In this document: positions 2,009 through 48,692 of the stretch, one piece after another
Layout of the letters: every line of letters starts with the position of its first letter
Position numbering within the stretch: the first letter of the stretch is position 1
From: a virus
DNA: 64,000 nucleotides
Virus record (IMG/VR): IMGVR_UViG_3300045988_108212
Location: 93,286-157,285 of that record
Strand: one strand, 5' to 3'
Made by a program: the position numbers and the translations under genes
The notes under the pieces: generated by a model
Told to the model about the DNA's origin: nothing
The model's input: only the letters and a program-made list of their open reading frames with translations
Databases searched by the model: none

Positions 2009-2743
2009 CTATTTACGAGCGTTTTTCATCTGATCTAAGATAGCCTGAGCTTCCTGCTGTCGTTCATCCTGCTCCATACGATAATCTAATGTTTCTGCAC
2101 TAGATTCATACGCAATAGCAACGCCTTTGGCTTGTTCGCTAAGTTTCTTTGCTCCTTCTCGAACCTCTTCCAAACCTTCCTGAGCAACATTTGAACTATT
2201 ATATTGATCTAAATTTTTCTGTAATTCTGCAATCTGCTGATCTGCCTCCATCTGGAGAACTACAGTATCTTTTTCGCCTTTTAACTTAATGAGCTGATCA
2301 TATGCCTGGTTTTTAATTTCTTCCTGTTTATCCTTTGTGGTTTGCAACTCTGGGATTTTCTTTTCGTACACTGATTTCTGTGCCTTTAGCGTGGCTAATT
2401 TTTGAGCATAATACATTGCTTTTTTATCATCATGATTATCAATGTACTGGTTGATCATTGCCTCGGTTTTAGAAATTTCTTCTTTTGTTTCTTTGAGATC
2501 ATCTTCCATTGTTGCCAATCTACCAGCTACCGTTGTGTATGTACCCATTGTTTTCTTATAAAAGTCTTGTTTCTCTTTAATTGCAGTATTATATCTGGCT
2601 CTTGCTCCCTCTGGAGTCATTGCATTTTCTTTGATCTTTTCTGTAACTGTTCCAGATGCCACATTTTTAATCTGCTTTCCGTTTTTAGTAAATTGTAAAT
2701 ATGCGATAATTGCTACAATTACACAAATAATAATAATTGCCAT
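2009..2743 (-). CDS. membrane-anchored coiled-coil protein, PspA/IM30-like
   Basis: N-terminal TM helix (MAIIIICVIVAIIAYL) followed by about 220 aa of heptad-rich, E/K/Q-rich sequence similar in pattern to PspA. It lies immediately downstream of the flotillin gene. Confidence 0.45.
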   Translation of the reverse strand: MAIIIICVIVAIIAYLQFTKNGKQIKNVASGTVTEKIKENAMTPEGARARYNTAIKEKQDFYKKTMGTYTTVAGRLATMEDDLKETKEEISKTEAMINQYIDNHDDKKAMYYAQKLATLKAQKSVYEKKIPELQTTKDKQEEIKNQAYDQLIKLKGEKDTVVLQMEADQQIAELQKNLDQYNSSNVAQEGLEEVREGAKKLSEQAKGVAIAYESSAETLDYRMEQDERQQEAQAILDQMKNARK

Positions 2744-2757
2744 AATAATTTCTCCTA

Positions 2758-4218
2758 TTAGAACTCACGGTAATCTGCTGGCTCTGGTGTTCCAAGACTT
2801 TCATTATCTGTAAACTCTACTTCTTTATCTTCAGAAACAAAATCTTTCAACATCTTTGCAAGATCAACACCTGTAGATCCTTTAACACCATCTGATACCT
2901 GATTCACAACATTCATAATATCTTTTGTTAATTTTGTTGTATTTCCTTCTCCATACATAGTAATGCTTCCTACATTACCTAATGGCGCAGCTGCATTTTT
3001 AACTGCTTCTGGGAACATCTGGCACATCATTTCTACGATAGAAGCTTTACCCATCTGTTTCATAGCTTCAGCTTTCTTCTCAATAGCTTCTGCTTCAGCA
3101 ATACCTTTTGCTTTAATCGCCTCAGCTTCTGCTACACCTTTTGCTCGGATACCTTCAGCTTCCTGTTCCATAGCATATTTTGTAGATTCAGCTTCTTTTT
3201 CTTTAGCATATTTATTTGCTTCTGACTCTTTCTGTCTCTTATATAAATCTGCATCTGCTTTCTGCTGAGAAGCATATCTTTCAGCCTCTGCCTGTTTCTT
3301 GATCTGTGCATCTAATGTCTGCTCTGTTACCTCAACGTCTTTGCGTTTCAATTCAATTTCTTTTTCCTGACGCATAATATTAGCATCCGCAGTTACAACT
3401 TCAATTTCTTTACGTGATTTTTCTTCCTGAATCTTGTATGCTGCATCTGCCTCAGCCTTCTTTGCCTTTGAAATCTTCTCAAGTTCAGATTTTTTAATCT
3501 CCAGATTATTATTCTTTTCTGCAATCGCTGTTTCTGACTCGACTCTTGCATCATTCGCTTCTTTTTCAGCCATTGCTTTTGCTTTTTCAATATCTCTTTC
3601 GCTTTCAGCTCTGGAAATCGCAGCCTTCTTCTGAATTTTAACAACATTATCTACACCAAGATTTTCAATAACATCATTATCATCCATAAAATTCTGCACA
3701 TTAAAACTGATAATATCTAATCCCATTGCAGCAAGGTCTGGTTTTGCATTTTCTGTAACAAGCTGTGCGAATTTCTGACGATCGGAAACCATTTCTTCGA
3801 GACTCATCTTTCCAACGATCTCTCGCATATTACCTTCAAGGACTTCTCTTGCGACCTGTCCAATATCGCCTACTGGCTTATTTAAGAAGTTTTCTGCTGC
3901 AAGTTTTAATCTTTCTGGATTACTGCTAACCTTTACATTGACCGCTGCATCTACATTGATATTGATATAATCTGCTGTAGGCACAGAACTTGATGTCTTA
4001 ACATCAATTGGAATTAACTCAAGATTAAGATGATCTGCTTTTTCAAAGAATGGGATTTTTAACCCTGCCTTACCAATTAATGTCTTAGGTGTCTTTCTAA
4101 GTCCAGAAATAATATAAGCTTTATCTGGACTTGCTTTGACATAACCGCTACCGATAATAGCTCCTACGCCACCTACCGCAATAACCACTGGTACCACTGT
4201 TCCAATTACTTCAATCAT
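2758..4218 (-). CDS. flotillin / SPFH (band-7) domain protein
   Basis: N-terminal TM, then an SPFH core (YVKASPDKAYIISGLRK..IPFFEKADHLNLELIPIDV..). A long A/E/K-rich flotillin repeat region follows (AEAEAIKAKGIAEAEAIEKKAEAM), then a C-terminal FloT/YuaG-like tail. Confidence 0.9.
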   Translation of the reverse strand: MIEVIGTVVPVVIAVGGVGAIIGSGYVKASPDKAYIISGLRKTPKTLIGKAGLKIPFFEKADHLNLELIPIDVKTSSSVPTADYININVDAAVNVKVSSNPERLKLAAENFLNKPVGDIGQVAREVLEGNMREIVGKMSLEEMVSDRQKFAQLVTENAKPDLAAMGLDIISFNVQNFMDDNDVIENLGVDNVVKIQKKAAISRAESERDIEKAKAMAEKEANDARVESETAIAEKNNNLEIKKSELEKISKAKKAEADAAYKIQEEKSRKEIEVVTADANIMRQEKEIELKRKDVEVTEQTLDAQIKKQAEAERYASQQKADADLYKRQKESEANKYAKEKEAESTKYAMEQEAEGIRAKGVAEAEAIKAKGIAEAEAIEKKAEAMKQMGKASIVEMMCQMFPEAVKNAAAPLGNVGSITMYGEGNTTKLTKDIMNVVNQVSDGVKGSTGVDLAKMLKDFVSEDKEVEFTDNESLGTPEPADYREF

Positions 4219-4283: not shown

Positions 4284-4616
4284 TTAAATACACCCACCAC
4301 ATGAGTTAGGGCGAAAATCCTCTTCATTGATTGCTTTGAAGATCTGACGCTGAACATCAATGTCTGTTGTAATTTCATCTAACCAATATTTATTAGACTC
4401 AATCCACTCATCTTGTTTCAGTCCGTCATAATATGATTCCCATTCTTCAACCCAGTCCTTAAAATACCATCGCTCATATCTTTTATATGTATTCATAGGT
4501 TCTGTGCGTAAGTCTTCTGGAATCTTATCGGTAACATCTTTACCATCAACATAAAGCTTCCATTCTCCAATACAGAGTGCAAAACCACGACCTGTCCATT
4601 TTGCTTTAACTTCCAT
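4284..4616 (-). CDS. hypothetical W/E-rich protein ending in ...NSCGGCI
   Basis: 110 aa, starting 21 nt downstream of the radical SAM gene stop. The only cysteines near the end form a terminal C-G-G-C motif. Confidence 0.7.
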   Translation of the reverse strand: MEVKAKWTGRGFALCIGEWKLYVDGKDVTDKIPEDLRTEPMNTYKRYERWYFKDWVEEWESYYDGLKQDEWIESNKYWLDEITTDIDVQRQIFKAINEEDFRPNSCGGCI

Positions 4617-4636
4617 GTTTAATCATCCTCTTCAAT

Positions 4637-5599
4637 TTAATTTCCTAATGCAATTAATGAATTTCCACATGTAATTCTGTCTGCGTCTTCTTCTTTCGAT
4701 GGAACAAATACAATTACATCCCAACCGTCTTTTACAAGTGGTTGTTCAAATTTTTCATATACGTCAAAATCTGTTACAATCTCATATCCTTCGTCAACTG
4801 CTTCAACTGTTTCATGGATAGGAGTAATCTTTACAATGCATTTTTCCTTATCGAAATACTTGTTCATCAAATCTACGTCTAAATTACTTTTGGACGTAAC
4901 AGCAAAATTCAATGTGTACTTACGCTTCTTTGGCATTGGCAACCAATCAATAATGCCTCCGATCTCTGTTAAAGATAATGAACATCCTCGAAACATTTCA
5001 TTTCTTTGTTCTTCATTAAGAGTATTGATAGAGAACTGAAGACCAAAGCCATCTTCTCCACCATATTCGAATCCAGTTTTAACCCATTTATGTAAAAATT
5101 CTTTTAAATTATTATTTGCCTTTGGCATCATTGTAGAAATTACTGGATGATATGTGTTGAAATGTATATCACTGTCTGGATCTGCTAACATATGTGCAAT
5201 CTGTTTAGCCGAAGCAATTACATTTTGATTAAATGTAGGCTCTCCCATTCTTGCATAATGTACATTTAATCGTTCTCCATGTCTGATTCCTGATAAAGCA
5301 ATTCCAGAAGTGATCTCCATCATTAACTCTGGCAACGATGCGTTTCCTTTAAATCCAAGTTTAGGGCAATCACAGAAATTGCAATGCATCGGACAACCTT
5401 TCTGCGACGAAACAGTCACAACTAATTTTTCTCTAATATCAACTGGTTTATGTTCAACTTTTTCAATTCGTTTATCATACCCAAGAAAATCTGCCTTAAT
5501 GTTGTTTTCCTTGCCATAATCACCAACGAATAAGTATTCTAATGTTAAATCTGTATCGGAGATAATTTCTCCTGTATGTGTGTCTGTAATCTGTCTCAT
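4637..5599 (-). CDS. radical SAM enzyme, RlmN/Cfr-like
   Basis: VTVSSQKGCPMHCNFCDC (CxxxCxxC), MGEPTFN, LQFSINTLNEEQR, VKITPIHET and C-terminal RITCGNSL parallel the RlmN blocks LCVSSQVGCxxxCxFC / MGMGEPL / ISLHA / INLIPWNP / AACGQL. Confidence 0.8.
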   Translation of the reverse strand: MRQITDTHTGEIISDTDLTLEYLFVGDYGKENNIKADFLGYDKRIEKVEHKPVDIREKLVVTVSSQKGCPMHCNFCDCPKLGFKGNASLPELMMEITSGIALSGIRHGERLNVHYARMGEPTFNQNVIASAKQIAHMLADPDSDIHFNTYHPVISTMMPKANNNLKEFLHKWVKTGFEYGGEDGFGLQFSINTLNEEQRNEMFRGCSLSLTEIGGIIDWLPMPKKRKYTLNFAVTSKSNLDVDLMNKYFDKEKCIVKITPIHETVEAVDEGYEIVTDFDVYEKFEQPLVKDGWDVIVFVPSKEEDADRITCGNSLIALGN

Positions 5600-5629
5600 T
5601 TTCTCTCCTTCCTTTAAATTACTGTTTTA

Positions 5630-6097
5630 TTAATCAAATAATCCATACCCAAAGTGCTGTCTCAGTTCATCATTCCAACTATTAATCGATTCAACTTTTG
5701 GCTCTTGGACAAGCTTATATCGAAAATCTTCAGGCATAGACAGTGCGATAAAATTCATAATAAGTTTTGCACAATCTTTCCTTTCTTCAATATAATACAC
5801 GCCATCTTCTTTATAGAAATCAACCTCTTTAAAACACCCAGAATTATTTAAAATTTCAAATGCTGTTTCGCTCATTTCTGATTCTTGATACTCTGTCCAA
5901 ATCAGTCTCTCACTTCTATAACCAAGACCTAGACCCGTATAATCTTCATTGTAATTAAAAGCTACTCCTAGCTTTTTACAACTATCTTTATACGCTTGTC
6001 GAATTTTATGAATATCATAGTTACAATCAAATAAAAAACTTTCTGATATTTTATGCCCATCTTCCGACCAGTCGCCTAATTCTAATTTATAAATCAT
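5630..6097 (-). CDS. hypothetical protein
   Basis: 155-aa ORF with AAAGGAGAC SD; no family recognised. Confidence 0.7.
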   Translation of the reverse strand: MIYKLELGDWSEDGHKISESFLFDCNYDIHKIRQAYKDSCKKLGVAFNYNEDYTGLGLGYRSERLIWTEYQESEMSETAFEILNNSGCFKEVDFYKEDGVYYIEERKDCAKLIMNFIALSMPEDFRYKLVQEPKVESINSWNDELRQHFGYGLFD

Positions 6098-6154
6098 TCC
6101 AGTCTCCTTTCTTTAAGCACCCACCCGTCAAATTTGACGGGAAGGTGTATTATC

Positions 6155-6544
6155 TTAATCTTCTAACGAATCAATCATTGCACGTAATTCTGCTTCTGAC
6201 ATCTTCTCAATAGCCTCATCCTGTTTCTTGGAAAGAGCATCAATATATTTTCTCTGTGTCAGTTTCTTATTAATACGTTCCTTTTCAGCAAGTCTCTCAT
6301 TACGTTTTGTTGTAAAGATATACTTCACAATACCAATCGCAGCCGTTAATTTTGGATCAACATTTGCATCATCCAACAGACTTTCTTCTGAAGATTTAAC
6401 TTCCTGATCTTTCAGATTTTTATAAACCACGTCTAAATCTTTATCAGATAAATCCCATAAATCTTCTACGGATAATTCTCCCTTTGTTGATGGGAATCTC
6501 AATTTGCTTCTTGTTGCCATTTCGAATAAATTTTCTGTTGTCAT
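6155..6544 (-). CDS. hypothetical protein (acidic, helical)
   Basis: 129-aa ORF with AAGGAGAT SD; no family recognised. Confidence 0.7.
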   Translation of the reverse strand: MTTENLFEMATRSKLRFPSTKGELSVEDLWDLSDKDLDVVYKNLKDQEVKSSEESLLDDANVDPKLTAAIGIVKYIFTTKRNERLAEKERINKKLTQRKYIDALSKKQDEAIEKMSEAELRAMIDSLED

Positions 6545-6562
6545 AATTCAATCTCCTTTATA

Positions 6563-8632
6563 TTAAAATTTAATTTTAAGAACTCTTTCAGTTGCACCCT
6601 TGACTTTGACGATCACATCATCTCGTTTTGTAGAACTGAAACCAATTCCTGATAGCTGATTTGGGTCATCTGCGACATGCATCTTACTTCCTAAAGCCTC
6701 GAATACTCTCTTGTGCTGTACTAATTCCTGCTTCAAAAACTCATTGAAGAATCCATTTGGAGTATCTTCATTCACACATCCGTTTAACATGAACAGATAA
6801 TGTTTATGCCCAATACCTGTCTGTTCGTCCCAATAGTTAGGTGAATAACACATTACTGTTACTGGCACAAACTGATTTGTATTGATTCCCCAGATTTCTC
6901 TTGAAGATGTTGTTGATGGAAGTTTTTCTTTGATTGTGAACACTCCATCTTTTAATGTAACTGTAGCTACTGGCACGTTCTGTCCCTGTCTTAAAGGCTG
7001 ATCATATTCAAATTCGTAAATCTGACCATCAAATTCAATCTCGGCTGTAAATCCAGATGTACCATTGTTATGACAATAATTGTGTACGAAAAAATCATAA
7101 TCTCCATCAACCATTTTAGATTTATCTGCCCATGTGATATTTTCTACAGCAGGTTTTCCTTTTTCTGGATTGATTACATCAACATCAAGTCTGCCTCGTG
7201 TCACGTGATCAACCATATGGCTAAAGAAAATATGCTGACAAGGTGTTTTACAATGTGCATCAAAATCATCCCTATTCCAATCTTTTCCTGCATTCCACTG
7301 AATTGAAAATCTTAAGACTCCATCGACTGCTCCACCTGCGTTCTTAACTCTTTCTTTCATTTCGCTATCTGTCATATTTCCTGTGTATGCCCAACTGAAA
7401 GGATTACTCCACTTCATCATATTCTTAGCATCTTTATTTACAGGTGCGATCAGCGAAACCATATTCTTCTTGTGACGATTTTCAAACAGAACTTCTAATT
7501 CTTTTGCTGTTGGTAGAACATCTGATACAAATTTCTCTGCACTGATCTCTTCTACTTTAGAAAATTTCTTAGGATTTACAGCGACTTCCTTGCTCATCTC
7601 GTCAAAAATATCTAAGCCACCCTGGATACGTGGTGCTGCATCACGATTACAAAACAGAATATTGTTTACTGTAATATCATCAAGTCTTGCAAATCTACGC
7701 TGCAATGAATCCATATATCCTAAATCCGTTACAGTTTTCTTTGCATCCTCAAGCATTTTCTTAGTAAAAATTGCCTTTGGTCGTTTATAATTCGCAGGAG
7801 CTACAACATTTTCATAAGCCTTTACTGCATTGTCTAAGTCCATACCTTCACTGATATTTACAAGTAATGTACCGATACTATGATTTCTAATACGACCAAC
7901 TACATCTCCGATCGTCATGGCTTTTGTCCATGTGTATGTATCTTTTTCTTCATCAGACAAACCATTGTATTCTCGCTGATATTTTCTAAAATCTTTTAAT
8001 ACTTTTGCCCATTCCTGTCCTCTGTAAAGAGTGTTTGAAGCAATCAGTTCTAACACTGTATCAACAGCTTCTTCTGTGATTTCATCAAGTGATCTTTTGA
8101 ACACATTCTTTCGATCTCTAACTTTTGCTTTTACTGTAGGAATATCAGATTTCCTTTCCAGTAATCTCTCTGGAATCGGTGTATACATATGAGTCCATTT
8201 GATAATCTGCTTATCTTCTGTATACTCATTTGTCGTTTTTGTACCAACTGTATTTGTAAAATGTCTCCAAATATCTTTAATTGGCTTTGATTCTACATAT
8301 GTTCGTAAAGCATCAACTACTGGCTGAAATACGGCATCTTCAGTATCAATTTCCCAGATTGTATGAATCTTGCCGTCAACAATTGCCACAGCTCCACCGA
8401 TTGTTTTAATAAAGTTTCGGCAATGACCACAGTCATATTCTCGTCGTTTGCGATACATTTTGTTTGTTCCTTCAGGAAAACTACTCAGATATACTTCCCA
8501 CAGCACATCTTTATCAATATCAGTTTCATACAATGTAGAATTGTTTTTCTCTACATAGTCGAGCATTTTATTTAAACGCTCTGACAATTTGTTTAAAAAA
8601 TTGCTCCAGTTTTCATTCATTGGTGTGCACAT
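6563..8632 (-). CDS. large conserved-looking hypothetical protein (689 aa)
   Basis: Long uninterrupted ORF with GGAGATAAATT SD. It has an N-terminal YDCGHCRNF CxxC motif and a C-terminal block LRFSIQWN..DFDAHC..LDVDVINP..VENITW..FVHNY..AEIEFDG. I cannot name the family. Confidence 0.75.
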   Translation of the reverse strand: MCTPMNENWSNFLNKLSERLNKMLDYVEKNNSTLYETDIDKDVLWEVYLSSFPEGTNKMYRKRREYDCGHCRNFIKTIGGAVAIVDGKIHTIWEIDTEDAVFQPVVDALRTYVESKPIKDIWRHFTNTVGTKTTNEYTEDKQIIKWTHMYTPIPERLLERKSDIPTVKAKVRDRKNVFKRSLDEITEEAVDTVLELIASNTLYRGQEWAKVLKDFRKYQREYNGLSDEEKDTYTWTKAMTIGDVVGRIRNHSIGTLLVNISEGMDLDNAVKAYENVVAPANYKRPKAIFTKKMLEDAKKTVTDLGYMDSLQRRFARLDDITVNNILFCNRDAAPRIQGGLDIFDEMSKEVAVNPKKFSKVEEISAEKFVSDVLPTAKELEVLFENRHKKNMVSLIAPVNKDAKNMMKWSNPFSWAYTGNMTDSEMKERVKNAGGAVDGVLRFSIQWNAGKDWNRDDFDAHCKTPCQHIFFSHMVDHVTRGRLDVDVINPEKGKPAVENITWADKSKMVDGDYDFFVHNYCHNNGTSGFTAEIEFDGQIYEFEYDQPLRQGQNVPVATVTLKDGVFTIKEKLPSTTSSREIWGINTNQFVPVTVMCYSPNYWDEQTGIGHKHYLFMLNGCVNEDTPNGFFNEFLKQELVQHKRVFEALGSKMHVADDPNQLSGIGFSSTKRDDVIVKVKGATERVLKIKF

Positions 8633-8653
8633 AATTTATCTCCTTTTTATGTA

Positions 8654-9958
8654 TTATTTAATTGCTACGAATTTTTCATCCTGTTTGTTGTCATTAATAT
8701 ATATTTCTTTGCCCTTAAGTTCTGGAAAATATTTCTTGGCAAGTTTCTTGAATTCATTAATATTTTTAAGACTTTCGTCATCATATGAATCAAACAACAT
8801 TTCATCTTTGATTTCCCTAAAGAACTTCGCATGAGGTAAACCTTTTCTTTCCTCTTCTCTCTTCTTATCATTCTCAAGAATCTCTTCTAATTTACATAAA
8901 TTCTCTGTCACTTCAATGCAGCTACTTGGATATTTCACATATTTGTTTGTCCAAAAATCAACTGCATCATGAGCACCTGCATTACCAAACAGGTATTTTA
9001 ATACACAAGTCTTGAAACCTTCTTCTCTGTTAAATCTGTCGAATCTGCTTGTATAAGCAACAGTTTCAGTACCACAGTTCCAAACCACCTTAACCATACC
9101 TCTGTAAAATTTAGCCTTAGTTACTGGTTTACCACCTCTTTCGAGTGGCTTACCATTACTATCTAAAACAGGTTCCCTAACTGTCATCTCTTTGTCTACA
9201 TAAATAACTTTTTTGATTTTGTCTTTTAATTTTTCTGTATTCATATCTTTCTCCTCTTCGTTTCCTGTAAGTTCACTCATGATTTCATCCAATTTTTCTG
9301 GCGCAAATGTTAAAGTTGCACTCATTTCACCATTCCAATCAATATGTGTTGGTGCATAAGGACTCAACCCACGGTCGTCATGTATCATCCACGATTTCCC
9401 TGTGGTTGAAAGCTCACCAGCCTCATTCTTTATTGGTTCTGACGTTGCAGTAATTGGTTTTTGTTGATAGTGTGACAGAGCAGACACTCTTCTTTCTGAG
9501 AGTGACGGTAGGGTTAATGTATCAACCTGTATTTTGTCGGCTGAAATCGTACCTGTCTGAATCTCAATATCTTCATTCATTGTTCCACGAATAAGCACAA
9601 CCTGTAGTTCATCTGAAGTTCGAACAACACAATTAATATACCTATATAAATCACCATCAAACCACATCTTATTATTACTATTTATTTTCGTATATATTAA
9701 ATGATGTAACCCTGTAGCTGTTGGATCAATGGCTTTATCATCTTCCCCAAATACACTACATACAGGCAAAAGTTTTTGAAAGCTCGATCCTCTACTTCTG
9801 TTATATTCGACACTTACTACCTTGAAAAGTACATTCTCAACATCGGAAAATACTTGTATATAATCTCCAATGCTCAAACGAATTTCATCATCACTATCAA
9901 GTCTCTTTCTGTGTCTGCCTTTAGTCTGCACCCAAACGCCCGTTTTATTTTCATCCAT
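8654..9958 (-). CDS. hypothetical protein (434 aa)
   Basis: Long ORF with GAGAGGAGAATTAT SD; no family recognised. Confidence 0.75.
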   Translation of the reverse strand: MDENKTGVWVQTKGRHRKRLDSDDEIRLSIGDYIQVFSDVENVLFKVVSVEYNRSRGSSFQKLLPVCSVFGEDDKAIDPTATGLHHLIYTKINSNNKMWFDGDLYRYINCVVRTSDELQVVLIRGTMNEDIEIQTGTISADKIQVDTLTLPSLSERRVSALSHYQQKPITATSEPIKNEAGELSTTGKSWMIHDDRGLSPYAPTHIDWNGEMSATLTFAPEKLDEIMSELTGNEEEKDMNTEKLKDKIKKVIYVDKEMTVREPVLDSNGKPLERGGKPVTKAKFYRGMVKVVWNCGTETVAYTSRFDRFNREEGFKTCVLKYLFGNAGAHDAVDFWTNKYVKYPSSCIEVTENLCKLEEILENDKKREEERKGLPHAKFFREIKDEMLFDSYDDESLKNINEFKKLAKKYFPELKGKEIYINDNKQDEKFVAIK

Positions 9959-10153
9959 ATAATTCTCCTCTCTAATGTATCAATTTGTTACTTTACATTT
10001 TCACGGTATTGATATTCATCGACACTCAATACCTGCGTACCCATCTCTAGTACCAAGACGGTACTGGAATTTATCTCCTTTCTAACATAATATTTACATT
10101 TTAATTTTGCACAAATGCCTGTGCGAGTCATTACATATAATAAGGAAGAAACT

Positions 10154-10804
10154 CTACCCAATTATATTCTGGATAAGCTCATAATACTTTGTCCTGCCGA
10201 CATACGACTTATGTTCTGCATCTTTTAATTCTTTCTTCAAAGTACATATATCTTTCTGATTATCCATGCAATTCTGCATCACTTCTATGTATCGAATACA
10301 ATTCTTGATCTTTCTATGCAATTCTTGTAAGGTTTTAAGATACCCAACAATCACTGCACGTTTCGCAGCATCAATCTTTTTAAACTCAATCGCATGAAGA
10401 ATATCACTTCTGGCAGAATCGGCATATGATAATGCCTGTTCTAATTCAAACTTCTTTTCTCCTAATTGATCTGAGTCATATGCTAGAAGTCCTACTATAG
10501 CTCTTTCCTCAGTCTCTATATTGTCGATCAATGTATTATCACATTCCCAATCCATAAAGCAATTTCCATTACTTTTACGCATTATTTCACTAGATTCCAT
10601 AGGTTTTCCAACTTTACCTAGCTCAATTTCTCTGGCATGAAATCCGTCTTTCATCCACGTATATTTATGCTTCAAACCTAAAATGTGCTTTGCTTGCTTA
10701 GAGGTAAATTGAGTAGCTTCAGACTTACGATTATCACGAACGTATTTATTTCTTGCATGATCTCTTTTCACATAGAACTCTCCATTCGTAATTATGTATT
10801 TCAT
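10154..10804 (-). CDS. hypothetical protein
   Basis: 216-aa ORF with CAGGAGTGATGT SD. Confidence 0.7.
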   Translation of the reverse strand: MKYIITNGEFYVKRDHARNKYVRDNRKSEATQFTSKQAKHILGLKHKYTWMKDGFHAREIELGKVGKPMESSEIMRKSNGNCFMDWECDNTLIDNIETEERAIVGLLAYDSDQLGEKKFELEQALSYADSARSDILHAIEFKKIDAAKRAVIVGYLKTLQELHRKIKNCIRYIEVMQNCMDNQKDICTLKKELKDAEHKSYVGRTKYYELIQNIIG

Positions 10805-10850
10805 ACATCACTCCTGTATTTAATTGTAGTTTTTTGGAAAAATTTTCATG

Positions 10851-10879
10851 TTGACGAACATGTTTAGAATTGTTATAAT
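10851..10879 (+). promoter_or_regulatory. near-consensus sigma-70 promoter on the strand opposite the surrounding genes
   Basis: TTGACG (10851-10856), a 17-nt spacer, then TATAAT (10874-10879). Confidence 0.55.
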
Positions 10880-10885
10880 GATTTT

Positions 10886-10981
10886 AAGGATAATAATATC
10901 CTTATCTATTAAACAATTCTAAATATCAAATTCGATTTTCTATCGTGCTGCCAACACGGTAGATTCAAAAAATCTTTTTTT
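10886..10981 (+). ncRNA. candidate ~95-nt small RNA
   Basis: It starts just after the 10851 promoter. There is an 8-bp hairpin TAAGGATA-ataa-TATCCTTA (10885-10904) and an 8-bp hairpin CTATCGTG-N7-CACGGTAG (10940-10962). A T7 run follows at 10975-10981. No ORF or SD is present. Confidence 0.35.
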
Positions 10982-10997
10982 GTTATCTATGATTTGT

Positions 10998-11363
10998 TTA
11001 GTTGAAATTTTTAGTTTGTGTGAAAGTAGAAGTTTTACCAAAGACTTCTGCTTTCTTTTTTATTGTCTGTATTTTTATTCCAACATTGTATCTCTCTTTG
11101 TATGTAAATTGCAGGCATTTGATTATGTCAAATATGTCGTCCTGCCTAATATGAGAGAACAAATTCTCATCTTGAATAAATTCGATCCAATGATATGAAA
11201 GATCTTTATCTTTGCCATAGATCTTCATCTTTCTATCATCTGCTCGAATCTTATATTCACTCAGAAACCACGATGACATTTCTGATGAGTGTAAATCAAG
11301 TACATCAATATGCATTTGATTTGATTGATTCGCTACCAATGTTTTTAATATTTGATTGTCCAT
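10998..11363 (-). CDS. hypothetical protein
   Basis: 121-aa ORF with AAGGAAGGTATATGT SD. Confidence 0.7.
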   Translation of the reverse strand: MDNQILKTLVANQSNQMHIDVLDLHSSEMSSWFLSEYKIRADDRKMKIYGKDKDLSYHWIEFIQDENLFSHIRQDDIFDIIKCLQFTYKERYNVGIKIQTIKKKAEVFGKTSTFTQTKNFN

Positions 11364-12408: not shown

Positions 12409-12858
12409 CTAGGATGCCATTGCATTCATGTACGATAACATGCCGTTTTGTATTAAAATGCCATGTCCTATTTTTAACATTAAAGATAGATCAGATATTC
12501 TTCCCCAATACTCTAAAAGATTATTCTTTGGAATTGTTCTTCCTTGCTCTAAATACACCTGTGATACCATTTTTAATCCATTACTGGTATTTGGATAAAT
12601 GGTTACATGTGTCGGTATCCAGTTCCTTAATTTTTTTGTAATTGGATACACGTTAATCTCTGTGCTCGTATTATTACAAATATTATTAGAATATACGATG
12701 ACTGGTCTTTTCCCATGCAAGATATGACTACCTTCAATTTTCGGCAAATCTGCAAAATATATTCCCCAAACTTGAGGATTTTGATATTTACCATATACAT
12801 ATTCTTTTCTTTTTCTGTTATCGTTTCCTTTTCTTTCTTTGTTAGTATATCCGTTCAT
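12409..12858 (-). CDS. MazF/PemK/EndoA-family toxin-like endoribonuclease with basic N-terminal extension
   Basis: IYFADLPKIEGSHILHGKRPVIVYSN..PITKKLRNWIPTHVTI..SQVYLEQGRTIPKNNL parallels B. subtilis EndoA [47 protein letters not shown]. The start is set at the ATG after GAGGGA, because the ORF-track ATG at 12918 lies inside the promoter. Confidence 0.8.
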   Translation of the reverse strand: MNGYTNKERKGNDNRKRKEYVYGKYQNPQVWGIYFADLPKIEGSHILHGKRPVIVYSNNICNNTSTEINVYPITKKLRNWIPTHVTIYPNTSNGLKMVSQVYLEQGRTIPKNNLLEYWGRISDLSLMLKIGHGILIQNGMLSYMNAMAS

Positions 12859-12908
12859 TTTTACGTCCCTCAACTTTCCCCAGTTGTATTTTTTATTTTC
12901 ATGAATTA

Positions 12909-12946
12909 AATATACCATACTTTTTGCACCCTGTCAATAGGTGCAA
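12909..12946 (-). promoter_or_regulatory. promoter with its -35 box embedded in a 7-bp inverted repeat (operator-like); twin of 38739-38776
   Basis: The minus strand reads TTGCACC-ta-TTGACA-g-GGTGCAA-aaagtatgg-TATATT (17-nt spacer). Confidence 0.6.
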
Positions 12947-13018
12947 GAAAGAAAGTTAATTTTTGTTGTGAACAAAGAATCTCTACATTTCTTATTATAA
13001 TGCTACCATAGAACAAAA

Positions 13019-13339
13019 TCAAGATATTTTTCGAACAGATGTTCTCTTTTTGTTCGAACACTTTACTTTGTGCTTACTTGGAAGGGGGAAATACTGTCTA
13101 ACTTTATGAGGCTTATCCAGTTTCCATTTCTTTTCTTCAAAATCATAGTCACAAAAATCAAGCACTTCGTCCACACATCCATCATTATATTTGTAATCCA
13201 CAATAACAGGATATGTTTTATACCTCATGTAACGTGATGCATTATCTGGTTTTAATGGTGGAATCTCTGCTGAAATCCACATAAGATTCTGGTTTGCTTT
13301 CTTTTCTTCCTTATTTTGTCTAATCGTATTTATCTTCAT
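13019..13339 (-). CDS. hypothetical protein
   Basis: 106-aa ORF with TAGGAGAATTTTGT SD. Confidence 0.65.
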   Translation of the reverse strand: MKINTIRQNKEEKKANQNLMWISAEIPPLKPDNASRYMRYKTYPVIVDYKYNDGCVDEVLDFCDYDFEEKKWKLDKPHKVRQYFPLPSKHKVKCSNKKRTSVRKIS

Positions 13340-13350
13340 ACAAAATTCTC

Positions 13351-14097
13351 CTATAAAATCCTAATAATTTGTTCGTAAATTGCAATCGCATTATCTCCTG
13401 GAAAGTTCTGGTTCACATGCATATGTCCAAAGAACCACTTTTTATATTCAACAGATTCTTTAATCTCTTGCAAATAATCCGTCAATATATCTGTTTTATA
13501 CACTCCTAATCCTTGGTCCATTTGACATAATACAGATGCATATGGACTATGTGTAATTATATAATCCACTTGCGATCCATTCTGCTTCAGATTCATCATA
13601 CCTTCTGTCATTTCCTCCTCTGAAGGCAATTCTTCTTTCCACCAGCTCACATGATTAATCCTAAACATTTTGTCATAATCTCTGTACCATTCATTAATTC
13701 TTGGATCGTCTGGCTCTAAAATTCCATCTTGCACATCATGGGAACTGGCACCGCCAAATGTAAAGAATTTCTTTACTTGAATTTCAAACACCTGTCCACG
13801 CATAAGATGAAATACAGAGTCTTTGATCTTGTGAATCTTTCCGCCACACCATTTCTCTACAGGATATTGATATAAGCGGTCGTAATTTTCATGATTCCCA
13901 CATACAAACAATGTAGTAAATGGCTTGTTATCTAACCATTCCAGATTATATCGTTCTTCTTTTGTGTCATGCCACAGTCCAAAATCTCCGCAGATAATCA
14001 CATAATCATCTTTGGTTAACTCAACTCCCTCTGGGAAAGAACGACTGTTTAATCGAGTCATCCAATCCCCATGTGTATCTCCTGTTACAAATATCAT
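13351..14097 (-). CDS. calcineurin-like metallophosphoesterase
   Basis: Motifs GDTHGD, GDFG, GNHE and HSP/GHMH occur in canonical order. The start overlaps the upstream gene's stop (ATGA). Confidence 0.85.
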   Translation of the reverse strand: MIFVTGDTHGDWMTRLNSRSFPEGVELTKDDYVIICGDFGLWHDTKEERYNLEWLDNKPFTTLFVCGNHENYDRLYQYPVEKWCGGKIHKIKDSVFHLMRGQVFEIQVKKFFTFGGASSHDVQDGILEPDDPRINEWYRDYDKMFRINHVSWWKEELPSEEEMTEGMMNLKQNGSQVDYIITHSPYASVLCQMDQGLGVYKTDILTDYLQEIKESVEYKKWFFGHMHVNQNFPGDNAIAIYEQIIRIL

Positions 14098-15044
14098 ACA
14101 ATTACTCCTTCCAATAACTCTTCTAATGCCTGCATATTATCTTCATGTACTCTATCATCTTGATCTGCATCATCTTTGCCAGTCTTATAAGCAAACTTGA
14201 TAATCTCCATAACTCTATCATAACTCACATTAACAACATTTTCCTTCAATCCGTTAAAAGCCCCACTGATAATTTCCTTGTATGTCTGCGCAATATCATC
14301 AAACAATACATGAGTTTCTTCCTCTGTGATTGTTGCATACAGAAATGTCATTGCAGGGCTACTATGATTCAATAATCTCATAAGTGTATACAATACGTTC
14401 TGATCATCTTTATGATCGACAAGTGTCCAATACACAAAGTTCTTTCGTAATGTATGCGTACCAATATTGTCCTCAATTCCAACTGCTTTAGCACCTTTTT
14501 TAACAAAATCCAAAGCATTTGCTTCAGTCATGTGTCCTGATCCAGACTTACATGTTCCAAAAACATAATCATCCATTGGCACTTCGCCATCAATCTTGAC
14601 ATCATATTTAGTTCCTGCAACAGCTTCAAAGAAAATATCCACTGCTTCAGTTACCAAATCGTTAAAGTATACAGTTCTGAATTTCTTTGTTTTCTTTTCC
14701 TGCTTACGAGTCTTATCGTCTAATAAATCGCCCCATTTGAGTCTGACGATATCAGAGATACGATATGCTGTATTGTTTCCAACTGCAACCAAAAGATTGT
14801 TTCTGGCAGCTACATATCGTTTGTACTCTGTGTACGATTTATCAATCTGGTCTCTAAAATATGCATTAAAGGCTGCAAATTGTTTTCTGTCCTTGATCGG
14901 ATACACTAAAGATGATACGCCTTTCTGTTTGTTAGATCGAGTCCATTTAGGACTTCCATCCTTACGTCTTTTAATCTTTGTTTCAGATTCTTCTGCGTTA
15001 TTATTGTTTACTGTTTCAATAACTTCAAACTGTGTTGCTGCCAT
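14094..15044 (-). CDS. tyrosine recombinase / integrase
   Basis: AYRISDIVRLKWGDL (Arg box), GTHTLRKNF (HxxR) and LLNHSSPAMTFLYA (His/Tyr box). SD is GAGAGGAGAG. Confidence 0.85.
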   Translation of the reverse strand: MAATQFEVIETVNNNNAEESETKIKRRKDGSPKWTRSNKQKGVSSLVYPIKDRKQFAAFNAYFRDQIDKSYTEYKRYVAARNNLLVAVGNNTAYRISDIVRLKWGDLLDDKTRKQEKKTKKFRTVYFNDLVTEAVDIFFEAVAGTKYDVKIDGEVPMDDYVFGTCKSGSGHMTEANALDFVKKGAKAVGIEDNIGTHTLRKNFVYWTLVDHKDDQNVLYTLMRLLNHSSPAMTFLYATITEEETHVLFDDIAQTYKEIISGAFNGLKENVVNVSYDRVMEIIKFAYKTGKDDADQDDRVHEDNMQALEELLEGVIV

Positions 15045-46887: not shown

Positions 46888-46979
46888 GTACGGGTGGCAG
46901 AGCTGGTTTAATGCGCAGGATTGCTAATCCTGTATACGTACGAATATGCGTATCCTGGGGTCGTAGCCCAGTCCGTACG
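46888..46979 (+). tRNA. tRNA-Ser(GCU), type II
   Basis: Acceptor GTACGGG/TCCGTAC, a 3-bp D stem, and anticodon arm CAGGA-TTGCTAA-TCCTG. A 7-bp variable arm ATACGTA..TATGCGTAT is present. The T arm is CTGGG-GTCGTAG-CCCAG, with an atypical T loop. Confidence 0.7.
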
Positions 46980-46985
46980 CTAAAT

Positions 46986-47060
46986 CGCACCATCGTCTAA
47001 ATGGTTTTAGGACACATCCCTTTCACGGATGCAATACGAGTTCGACTCTCGTTGGTGTGA
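46986..47060 (+). tRNA. tRNA-Glu(UUC)
   Basis: Acceptor CGCACCA/TGGTGTG, D stem GTCT/GGAC, anticodon arm CATCC-CTTTCAC-GGATG and T arm ACGAG-TTCGACT-CTCGT. Confidence 0.75.
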
Positions 47061-47100
47061 TGTTTGTCCTACAATGTTCTTCGGACTTGTGGGCTAATAT

Positions 47101-47184
47101 CCCTGTTTATACTGCTAAGGAGACAGGCAAAACTGTAAATTTTGCGGCTTCGGTCACGAGTGGGTTCGATTCCCTCAACAGGGA
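47101..47184 (+). tRNA. tRNA-Tyr(GUA), type II
   Basis: Acceptor CCCTGTT/AACAGGG and anticodon arm CAAAA-CTGTAAA-TTTTG. The variable arm is GGC-TTCG-GTC and the T loop is TTCGATT. The D region is one nt longer than canonical. Confidence 0.6.
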
Positions 47185-47225
47185 TGATTAGGTTAGTAAC
47201 TATACGATAGATTAACCAAAAAATA

Positions 47226-47307
47226 TGCGAACACCCTGATGGTTGGTGGATATTGGAATGTATACCTCTTCTGATATTCTGATGGAGTTCATCACTTCAG
47301 TTCGCCC
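47226..47307 (+). pseudogene. degenerate tRNA-like element with 16-nt 'anticodon' loop
   Basis: A 6-bp acceptor GCGAAC/GTTCGC, a T-like arm TGGAG-TTCATCA-CTTCA and the stem GGAAT/ATTCT around GUAUACCUCUUCUGAU. The D arm is poor. Confidence 0.25.
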
Positions 47308-47398
47308 TAGAAAAGCAATACTTACACACTGTTGCTTTTTAGAAATATGTATTGTCTCGCCAGTGTGTACGTATGAGAGGCAAATACATATTCGTTAT

Positions 47399-47472
47399 TG
47401 ACATGTAGCTCAATTGGACAGAGCACAACGCTACGGACGTTGGTGTTGCAGGTTCGATTCCTGTCGTGTCAG
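47399..47472 (+). tRNA. tRNA-Arg(ACG)
   Basis: Acceptor TGACATG/CGTGTCA, D arm GCTC-AATTGGACA-GAGC, anticodon arm CAACG-CTACGGA-CGTTG and T arm GCAGG-TTCGATT-CCTGT. Confidence 0.85.
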
Positions 47473-47475
47473 TTT

Positions 47476-47559
47476 TCCTATATACCTCAGTTGGCAGAGG
47501 GTCATCACAGCAAGGATAACATTAGATGAAAGTCGCTGGTTCGAATCCAGCTGTAGGAA
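47476..47559 (+). tRNA. tRNA-like gene with canonical body but an 18-nt anticodon loop (identity undetermined)
   Basis: TCCTATA-TA-CCTC-AGTTGGCA-GAGG-G-TCATC-[ACAGCAAGGATAACATTA]-GATGA-AAGTC-GCTGG-TTCGAAT-CCAGC-TGTAGGA-A. Confidence 0.6.
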
Positions 47560-47565
47560 TTATAT

Positions 47566-47638
47566 TCTCGTATAGCTCAACTGGTAGAGCGGATGGCTGT
47601 TAACCATCATGTCGGAGGTTCAAATCCTTCTACGAGAG
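47566..47638 (+). tRNA. tRNA-Asn(GUU)
   Basis: Acceptor TCTCGTA/TACGAGA, D arm GCTC-AACTGGTA-GAGC, anticodon arm GATGG-CTGTTAA-CCATC and T arm GGAGG-TTCAAAT-CCTTC. Confidence 0.9.
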
Positions 47639-48228
47639 TTTGTATTTTAAACATAAGCAACTCGGTTATAAAACTCAATGCCATGAGTCCGAGAGATATT
47701 CTAGGCACATATGTCGAATTGGAGAGATACATTGTACGGATACGTTCTTTGTGTCTCTTTTTATGTCGGAGTGATCTGATATGGACAAGAGAGAAACTCT
47801 CAAGCAAATGGATATTGTGCAGCATTTTGGTCTGGTTAACGCACAGAACTTTTCGCTACAATAATAGACGCTCCTGTGGAGAATAATCCACTTCAATGCG
47901 TACTCTGGCAGGTACGTAAAAGGTGGAAAAGCCAAATAATGTAGTTTGATGTGAATCTGTTCAAAAGACAGTGTATAAGAAAAGTCGCTGGTATGTCGCT
48001 CAAGTCAGTTAAGGGTAAGTTCAAATTTATAAAAACATTCTAAAACTTAATTCTGAACGGTGGGTTGACATTGCATGTATTGATCATGTCATAGAACTGG
48101 TTTTTTAGACTTAGGTAAGAAGTTAGAGGTCGCTCCTCGAAGCTCAGACTTATCTACTATGTTGCAGAATAAACTGTTCCACAAATGACTGTAAGGTGAA
48201 GACCTGCTTTAAAATTAAAATACATTTA
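47639..48228 (+). ncRNA. candidate large structured non-coding RNA embedded in the tRNA array
   Basis: This 590-nt tRNA-to-tRNA gap has no credible ORF. GC is about 40-43% in sampled lines versus about 30% in flanking genes. It has many nested helices, such as CTCGG..CCGAG (47661/47689), AGAGATAC..GTGTCTCT (47723/47751), GTGGA-gaataa-TCCAC and GCGTAC-N8-GTACG (47875-47920). Confidence 0.4.
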
Positions 48229-48300
48229 AGGGGTATCGCCAAGTGGTAAGGCACAGCACTTTGACTGCTGTATTCACTGGTTCAAATCCAGTTATCCCTG
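48229..48300 (+). tRNA. tRNA-Gln(UUG)
   Basis: Acceptor AGGGGTA/TATCCCT, anticodon arm CAGCA-CTTTGAC-TGCTG and T arm ACTGG-TTCAAAT-CCAGT. Confidence 0.85.
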
Positions 48301-48301
48301 T

Positions 48302-48376
48302 CGCAGAATGGAGAAGTTTGGTTATCTCGTCAGGTTCATGCCCTGAAGATCGGTGGTTCAAATCCACCTTCTGCTA
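48302..48376 (+). tRNA. tRNA-Met or Ile2 (CAU)
   Basis: D stem GAGA/TCTC, anticodon arm TCAGG-TTCATGC-CCTGA and T arm GGTGG-TTCAAAT-CCACC. The acceptor is GCAGAA/TTCTGC with a C1xU72 mismatch. Confidence 0.75.
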
Positions 48377-48408
48377 TTTTTCTAGGTTTCATTTTATTTT
48401 TCATATAG

Positions 48409-48440
48409 TATCCTTTATTGGTAGGGACATTTATGTCCTT
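48409..48440 (+). other. 13-bp hairpin between tRNAs (possible processing signal)
   Basis: TATTGGTAGGGAC-ATTTAT-GTCCTTACCAATA, with no T-run. Confidence 0.6.
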
Positions 48441-48447
48441 ACCAATA

Positions 48448-48523
48448 TTGCACAGTGGAAAAGTTGGTAAATTCGCTCGTTCCATTTGGTTCTGGAGACG
48501 TAGGTTCAAATCCTACCTGTGCA
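48448..48523 (+). tRNA. tRNA-like gene with irregular anticodon arm (best fold gives 8-nt loop UUUGGUUC; UGG?)
   Basis: Perfect acceptor TGCACAG/CTGTGCA and T arm GTAGG-TTCAAAT-CCTAC, with a normal 76-nt length. The only 5-bp anticodon stem (TTCCA/TGGAG) encloses 8 nt and leaves an abnormal junction. Confidence 0.5.
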
Positions 48524-48622
48524 ATCAAAGAGCTGTTTGATTGGCAGTTCTTTTTCAACAAAGATTTTTTCTCATTGTTAGCATATAGTGGATGGATATT
48601 AATTCATCTACTACTCCTTTCT

Positions 48623-48692
48623 GGCTTGGTAGTTCATTGGTAGAACGCAATACTTTTAATATTGTGAAGCGGTTCAAATCCGTTCCAAGCCC
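48623..48692 (+). tRNA. tRNA-Lys(UUU)
   Basis: Acceptor GGCTTGG/CCAAGCC, D arm GTTC-ATTGGTA-GAAC, anticodon arm CAATA-CTTTTAA-TATTG and T arm AGCGG-TTCAAAT-CCGTT. The variable loop is short. Confidence 0.8.

Follow-up and report, generated by a model that had tools for sequence, protein, structure and literature searches.

A one-cysteine, RlmN-like radical SAM enzyme in a phage cargo slot that sister phages fill with a NARP1-like cassette

RlmN and Cfr are class A radical SAM (S-adenosylmethionine) methyltransferases, which act on C2 or C8 of A2503 in 23S rRNA and on A37 in tRNA. To our knowledge, no other members of their mechanistic class have been characterized, and each of the two depends on a pair of cysteines, which in Escherichia coli RlmN are the methyl carrier Cys355 and the 'resolving' Cys118. 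Without Cys118, E. coli RlmN stalls as a covalent enzyme-RNA crosslink, and PDB entries 5HR6 and 5HR7 show this trapped state in the C118A variant. Two further systems are relevant here, namely NARP1 (Adps + Namat), a phage pathway of NAD+ reconstitution that counters NAD+-depleting defense (bioRxiv 10.1101/2024.02.11.579819; PMC13586617), and QueL, a radical SAM enzyme whose gene shares an operon with those of the QrtT transporter and a nucleosidase (PMC11477304, PMC11130926). In the present study, we analyzed 64,000 nucleotides of an IMG/VR virus record (IMGVR_UViG_3300045988_108212, positions 93,286 to 157,285; this whole stretch is hereafter referred to as the window) and focused on a 320-aa radical SAM enzyme (4637..5599, minus strand) and on the gene that follows it, which encodes a 110-aa protein with a CGGC tail (4284..4616, minus strand). 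We found that the enzyme belongs to a distinct, uncharacterized branch of the RlmN/Cfr-type radical SAM fold, and that it is free-standing, swappable cargo in a hotspot between a conserved 155-aa gene and the small gene, which sister phages fill with an NAD cassette.

We compared the enzyme with RlmN and Cfr at the level of sequence, profile, and fold. A phmmer search of the PDB matched it to RlmN (E = 5e-7) and placed T62 of VTVSSQ on Cys118 of E. coli RlmN (LCVSSQ), a stretch at which the C118A entries read LAVSSQ. A family profile built from 34 sequences matched RlmN/Cfr chains at E values of 1e-19 to 1e-17 over profile positions 24-298 of 306, and placed 'tCGq' on the 'AACGQL' of RlmN, which equates Cys311 with Cys355. 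The AlphaFold2 (AF2) model of the enzyme (pLDDT 91.2) found RlmN as its best PDB match (E = 6.5e-10 to 1.6e-7, TM = 0.51-0.64), and the next radical SAM fold family began at E = 3e-4. The homology to RlmN/Cfr proposed in a first-pass annotation of the window is thus borne out by profile and fold alike. Nevertheless, the enzyme falls below the curated cut-offs of the RlmN/Cfr family models (TIGR00048, RlmN, 35.5 bits vs 290 over residues 47-134; NF008396, 28.4 vs 633; TIGR04432, 21.2 vs 550), whose matches were confined to residues 42-134, and a single-sequence search matched only RlmN and Cfr, weakly. In the phmmer alignment, residue 93 of RlmN meets residue 34 of the enzyme, so that about 60 N-terminal residues of RlmN, presumably its helical accessory domain, are absent; AF2 predicts beta strands for residues 1-33 of the enzyme.

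The open reading frame matches phrog_24834 (2.5e-80), and a word-indexed search returned 6904 homologues, which databases name only 'radical SAM', 'COG0820 Fe-S redox enzyme', automatically '23S rRNA methyltransferase', or after fused domains. Neither a near-identical cultured phage nor any plasmid match was found, and the enzyme had no match among the PADLOC defense-system models. All motifs quoted in the first-pass annotation occur in the translation, namely VTVSSQKGCPMHCNFCD (C69/C73/C76), MGEP (118-121), FSINT (189-193), and ITCGNS (C311). A codon map on the minus strand places the CxxxCxxC [4Fe-4S]/SAM cluster (C69, C73, C76) at 5372..5395 and a family-specific Asp77, directly after the cluster motif, at 5369-5371. 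The Thr62 codon, which takes the Cys118 position in pairwise and profile alignments, lies at 5414..5416, and that of Cys311 (in ITCGN), which takes the Cys355 position in the profile alignment, at 4667..4669.

We next asked how far the cysteine pattern extends, using an alignment of 44 diverse full-length relatives (~25-57% identical to the window enzyme) that came from cluster representatives (50% identity), which were searched exhaustively. Cysteine was present in the Cys118 column of none of the 44 sequences, which carried I, T, N, A, M, S, V, or L there, and in the Cys355 column of 35. Among the cluster cysteines, C69 and C76 were invariant and C73 was a cysteine in 42 of the 44 sequences, while the Asp77 column (FCD) held aspartate in 38. 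No column of the alignment offered a substitute conserved cysteine, Cys311 being the sole conserved one outside the cluster motif. The branch retains the SAM-cleaving [4Fe-4S] site together with the C-terminal cysteine that is the methyl carrier in RlmN, and the family as a whole is without the Cys118-type cysteine and without ~60 residues found at the N-terminus of RlmN. The profile alignment thus confirms what had been read from the single sequence, namely that the cluster cysteines and the Cys355 equivalent are present and that the Cys118 equivalent is missing, its place being taken by threonine in the window. Given that C118 variants of RlmN stall and that this family never has Cys118, the RlmN cycle is unlikely to run unchanged. 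Three outcomes of the loss had been predicted, among which a different chemistry fits best, the loss being family-wide and without a substitute cysteine; a thiol supplied by a partner protein did not hold up, as described below.

To place the enzyme in its genomic setting, we defined the slot as the stretch between the 155-aa gene (phrog_20092; 5630..6097, minus strand), which forms its upstream border, and the small gene (window 4617-5629), and compared its content among 48 close relatives (the window and 47 IMG/VR loci). The enzyme alone occupied the slot in 13 relatives and a four-gene cassette, in some cases accompanied by a macrodomain or HNH gene, in 26; the slot was empty in seven, a flank was missing in two, and enzyme and cassette never occurred together (0/48). 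Judged by reading the translations, the cassette encodes NadE and a PncA-type isochorismatase/nicotinamidase together with a 278-aa protein resembling PRPP synthetase and a 489-aa protein resembling NAMPT, and this latter pair would correspond to the make-up of NARP1 (Adps + Namat). The NARP1-like cassettes of sister phages, extended by PncA and NadE, lie at 6336-9998 (L014), 5529-9998 (L011), 5558-9998 (L033), and 5802-9998 (L012) of their loci. In variants, an HNH endonuclease gene is inserted, a macrodomain gene is present, or NadE is fused to a nuclease-like extension at its N-terminus.

In nearly all close relatives, the 155-aa gene adjoins the slot irrespective of what the slot contains, and the small gene is likewise retained beside the enzyme, the NAD cassette, or an empty slot. 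The left junction, a 30-nt intergenic stretch with the ribosome-binding site (AAGGAAGGAG; 5600..5629, minus strand), is nearly identical ahead of the enzyme, PncA, or the small gene in sister phages. At the right junction, enzyme and small gene are separated by the spacer ATTGAAGAGGATGATTAAAC (4617..4636, minus strand), in which GGATGATTAAA matches the last nadE codons and stop (..GGATGATTAAATATG) that abut the small gene in cassette-bearing sisters. Both reading frames lie on the minus strand at the coordinates given in the first-pass annotation, but the spacer, given there as 21 nt, measured 20. By its sequence, this spacer looks like a relic of the replaced nadE or cassette. Taken together, the shared junctions and the nadE 3'-end match indicate that the closeness of enzyme and small gene is best explained by cassette replacement, and the locus illustrates that tight gene spacing can arise by accident of cassette swapping.

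We further examined the neighborhoods of enzyme relatives in other genomes. A scan of one genome per species with a single peptide pattern recovered 98 relatives, and 79 genome loci, mostly from gut metagenome-assembled genomes (MAGs), were examined at 35-77% identity to the enzyme. NAD genes adjoined the enzyme gene in 11 of these 79 loci, in at least six different arrangements. In six of them (L106, L112, L115, L116, L119, and L134; mostly Alphaproteobacteria MAGs), the order was NAPRT-PncA-rSAM-(NadE)-x-NrtR, where rSAM denotes the radical SAM enzyme. A Firmicutes MAG (L089) carried PncA-NAPRT-Nudix-rSAM-NadE-NadD-PncC-methyltransferase-NrtR and a MAG of an uncultured bacterium (L109) PncA-NAPRT-NadE-rSAM-NadD-PncC-NrtR-NAD kinase (NadK), while shorter sets were found in MAGs of Methanobrevibacter (L159; rSAM-PncA-NAPRT), Peregrinibacteria (L144; NadE-NMNAT-rSAM), and Woesearchaeota (L152; rSAM-NMNAT-NrtR-like). 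The NadD, PncC, NMNAT (L144), and NAPRT neighbors exceeded at least one NCBIfam cut-off. We found no paper tying a radical SAM enzyme to NAD salvage, NARP pathways, or NrtR regulons; such an enzyme is not mentioned in two NARP papers (bioRxiv 10.1101/2024.02.11.579819 and PMC13464706), and the nrtX/nrtY genes of the NrtR regulon paper could not be linked to the enzyme family.

Fusions and distant family members added further contexts. Two relatives with 30-34% identity (P0273 and P0297) are fused to an isochorismatase domain; another (P0325, ~27% identity) belongs to an isochorismatase-thioredoxin-reductase-like-rSAM operon (L165-L169) beside a TonB receptor; and the gene of a fourth (P0267, ~26% identity) overlaps an NMNAT-like gene (L174). 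At this last locus (5971-7185), the NMNAT-like gene precedes another radical SAM gene, which is MoaA/viperin-like and encodes 234 aa, and the genes may form a small nucleotide-modification operon. Four cellular relatives (34-41% identity) carry an N-terminal S component of an energy-coupling factor (ECF) transporter fused to the enzyme. The best match of this component was Pfam QueT, and in two of these proteins it exceeded the cut-off of 33.7 bits, at 37-40 bits. Likewise, two of the four have in addition a C-terminal methylthioadenosine/S-adenosylhomocysteine (MTA/SAH) nucleosidase domain, that of P0180 scoring above the equivalog cut-off. MTA/SAH nucleosidase clears SAH and 5'-deoxyadenosine, which radical SAM and methyl-transfer reactions leave as by-products.

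Two other settings were observed among the sampled loci. In four Alphaproteobacteria MAGs (L099, L114, L122, and L128; ~6001-7700), the enzyme gene is paired only with a serine recombinase-like gene, and the pair is flanked by prephenate-dehydratase-like and alanine-racemase-like genes, all named from sequence reading only; the pair looks as if it were a minimal mobile island. In a phage region of a Treponema MAG (L146, 5130-5801), a 223-aa CxxxCxxC protein (ECPHGCSYCY) without an NCBIfam match is encoded directly upstream of a 70%-identical enzyme homologue.

The reading that we favor, tentatively and at somewhat less than even chances, is that of a one-cysteine RlmN-like enzyme that acts on an NAD-related small molecule and is carried as an alternative to the NARP1 cassette, a reading drawn from genomic association. 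The phage enzyme would act on a small molecule tied to nicotinamide or NAD+ supply, and not on rRNA or tRNA, and the phage would carry it instead of the NARP1-type cassette found at this position in sister phages, keeping NAD+ available or otherwise blunting NAD+-depleting host defenses during infection. Speculatively, SAM would be cleaved to a 5'-deoxyadenosyl radical; Cys311 might serve as one-carbon carrier or hydrogen-atom donor; the pyridine or adenine ring of an NAD-related metabolite might be modified or released; and a non-cysteine group, perhaps Asp77, might finish the reaction in place of Cys118. A bolder form of this proposal, which we regard as rather doubtful, is that the enzyme is a previously unrecognized pyridine-nucleotide enzyme, a one-cysteine RlmN offshoot that would direct radical chemistry at a nicotinamide- or adenine-containing small molecule, and a single-gene counter-defense module functionally interchangeable with NARP1, by which phages would survive NAD+-depleting immunity. 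Its reaction could then be a Minisci-type one-carbon transfer or the release of niacin from an otherwise unusable vitamer.

Several observations weigh against an NAD-related role. NAD genes were found at only ~14% of the sampled genome loci, most enzyme homologues are lone cargo among miscellaneous phage genes, and no NAD gene was found in the window itself. The QueT-best S component indicates queuosine precursors rather than niacin, and an 84%-identical homologue lies beside the RNA-repair-type genes RlaP, CCA-adding enzyme, and DHH phosphoesterase. Moreover, we know of no missing NAD-salvage step that a radical SAM enzyme would fill, and every characterized member of the RlmN/Cfr fold known to us acts on RNA. 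The mutual exclusion of enzyme and NARP1 need not imply functional equivalence, since alleles may simply replace one another at a hotspot, and the link to counter-defense could reflect position alone.

The precedent of RlmN and Cfr, the only homologues of known function as well as the best fold match, invites the competing view of an RNA-modifying enzyme acting on tRNA A37 or 23S rRNA of host or phage, which would adjust translation or shield tRNA from defense nucleases, either finishing methylation with a non-cysteine base or forming covalent enzyme-RNA adducts. The conserved methyl-carrier cysteine agrees with this view, as do two-cysteine RlmN-like genes in other phages (the BUCTxx99 copy lies beside a tRNA array), the RNA-repair-type neighbors of the 84%-identical homologue, and the ten tRNAs, beta-CASP RNase, and MazF of the window. 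However, the family-wide loss of the cysteine whose absence stalls E. coli RlmN argues for another chemistry, the ~60 N-terminal residues of RlmN are absent, NAD-salvage genes and not RNA genes recur as neighbors, and the RNA-repair neighbors of the 84%-identical homologue are variable cargo that is absent in L082. It is difficult to see how an enzyme built into a vitamin importer, as in the fusions to the S component of a membrane transporter, would have rRNA or tRNA as its substrate. The first-pass annotation had tied such a target to the tRNA array, the beta-CASP RNase, and the MazF-like protein of the window, a link that fades given that the tRNAs lie >40 kb and MazF ~7 kb away and that the contexts elsewhere are NAD salvage and transporter fusions. 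An RNA target is accordingly weakened, and we consider it unlikely. Net charge and isoelectric point, tried as a test of RNA binding, were uninformative, the two-cysteine phage RlmN-like proteins being equally acidic. The same transporter fusions could instead point to a salvage lyase for a queuosine-type precursor, like Clostridioides difficile QueL (UniProt Q186P0; queuine to preQ1), that would feed tRNA or 7-deazaguanine DNA modification. The QueT-type S component of the cellular relatives suits such a lyase, the known QueL operon likewise joins a radical SAM enzyme, a transporter, and a nucleosidase, and one fusion gene (L086) lies 3.5 kb downstream of an open reading frame read as tgt from its N-terminal motif only. 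QueL itself is listed under InterPro IPR006638 (PMC11130926 supplement). Yet no preQ1 riboswitch was found ahead of the fusion genes (searches for preQ1 and NAD riboswitches near enzyme homologues found only tRNAs), and no tgt/DpdA or que genes were detected among the window reading frames of at least 150 aa or as recurrent neighbors. The genome scan, which relied on a single peptide pattern, did not recover C. difficile, and IPR006638, which we assume not to be an RlmN-type signature, also counts against a QueL-like role. The NAD link being far more frequent, we hold a queuosine-type lyase to be quite improbable.

A pairing of the enzyme with the CGGC-tailed protein, whose tail would supply a thiol or reducing equivalents or be the substrate, had been suggested by the layout of the window, with two adjacent genes on one strand only 20 nt apart. 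The small protein is, as first described, W/E-rich and ends in NSCGGCI (...RPNSCGGCI, pI 4.6). It belongs to PF27390 ('PM0253'), matches phrog_20678 at 1.9e-19, and has 38 homologues in a word-indexed search, nearly all with precomputed PF27390 matches; the C-terminal SCGGCI and Cys15 are conserved in nearly all full-length ones. The extreme C-terminus is almost invariant, (D/E)(F/W)Rxx-SCGGCI-COOH, from gut phages to Bragavirus (window 4284-4616, minus strand; L179 4001-4351). The AF2 model (pLDDT 90.7) shows low confidence only in the tail and had no match to PDB folds at E below 0.7; with CGGC on this low-confidence tail and no matching PDB fold, a thioredoxin fold was not recovered. With its strongly conserved CxxC on a flexible tail, the protein may act in redox chemistry or metal binding, and this feature, together with a thioredoxin-reductase-like gene in one distant operon of the enzyme family, would suit a partner. 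The comparative data speak otherwise. In an IMG/VR scan, relatives of the small protein were encoded at 73 loci, of which 12, all from the window's own lineage, also encode the enzyme and 61 do not. Homologues at 48-60% identity had no radical SAM gene within 10 kb; more distant ones (30-35% identity) occur in T4-like Bragavirus phages that infect Proteus, Providencia, Morganella, and Shigella, where they are surrounded by small genes next to tRNA arrays, retain the SCGGCI end, and lack a radical SAM neighbor. Conversely, a PF27390 gene was found in none of ~90 loci with enzyme homologues elsewhere (79 genome loci, five of the 84%-identical homologue, and three cultured phages). Synteny across these 73 and ~90 loci and the junction sequences, with small-gene retention whatever the slot content and the apparent nadE relic in the spacer, led us to reject the proposed partnership, and the thiol-donor idea fails with it, as does the expected co-occurrence in other genomes, which is restricted to the window's lineage. 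Obligate pairing is refuted by the comparative data, and any form of partnership now seems extremely improbable; the PF27390 protein is only a resident neighbor of the cargo slot, outside the system of the enzyme.

The surroundings of the two genes are mixed. Directly downstream (2009-4218, minus strand), the window encodes a 486-aa SPFH/Band-7/flotillin-like protein and a 244-aa coiled-coil membrane-like protein; the SPFH gene has no tblastn match in about a third of close relatives and may be variable cargo too. At ~7-9.5 kb from the enzyme lie genes, all on the minus strand, for a MazF/PemK-like protein (12409-12918) that is extended by 50 residues at its N-terminus, a calcineurin-like phosphoesterase (13351-14097), and an integrase-family protein (14094-15044), this set spanning 12409-15044. 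Ten tRNA genes occupy 46888-48692 (plus strand), and ArdA, three Bro-N proteins, LPD11, the beta-CASP RNase, and ClpP are encoded elsewhere in the window. The 84%-identical enzyme homologue lies in contigs of 62-457 kb (L081-L085, ~6001-11300), near a sigma factor, a GmrSD-like gene, and DNA methylases, with RlaP, a 320-aa gene, the CCA-adding enzyme, and the DHH phosphoesterase forming a variable block. In Salmonella phage Arash (L003, 1-5873), homologues of the 689-aa and 129-aa proteins of the window (37% and 34% identity) are annotated 'structural protein', and a two-cysteine RlmN-like gene follows ~2.6 kb downstream of them, an arrangement that loosely resembles that of the window.

These findings define a large natural family, spread over phages, bacteria, and archaea, that has the methyl-carrier cysteine only and must therefore finish or redirect the reaction differently from RlmN and Cfr. 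Repeated placement in NAD operons and exchange with an NAD+-reconstitution cassette lead to a concrete hypothesis that is inexpensive to test. If true, it would reveal a previously unknown enzymatic step in the supply of NAD, or a previously unknown way for phages to counter NAD+-depleting defenses such as Thoeris, SIR2, and DSR. In comparison with RlmN/Cfr, the closest fold, the enzyme has the CxxxCxxC motif, MGEP, the (S)xS(I/L)(N/H) strand, and the C-terminal xCG(Q/N) cysteine, with homology across the whole radical SAM core, but its family lacks a Cys118-type cysteine, has a conserved Asp after the cluster motif, and occurs with NAD salvage or transporter fusions and not with ribosome or tRNA genes; the enzyme itself is ~60 residues shorter, without the N-terminal region of RlmN, and scores far under the RlmN/Cfr family cut-offs. 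RlmN-like proteins with two cysteines are likewise encoded by phages (Salmonella phage Arash, gp133c; Stenotrophomonas phage BUCTxx99; Vibrio phages) and are similarly short (~310-320 aa), at 22-25% identity to the window enzyme, but they keep both cysteines (MCVSTQ/ICCSTQ, GGGCGQLW), and no Asp follows their cluster motif. The C. difficile queK-qrtT-queL operon resembles the cellular relatives in joining a radical SAM enzyme, an ECF S component, and a nucleosidase, which are fused in those relatives, but no preQ1 riboswitch or que genes were found near members of the enzyme family, whose dominant context is NAD. Finally, in comparison with NARP1-3, the enzyme has no sequence kinship to Adps, Namat, Nampt, Nmnat, PnuC, or NadR, being matched only by radical SAM/RlmN models, but it fills the same slot as the NARP1-type cassette of sister phages, and members of its family lie inside NAD-salvage operons.

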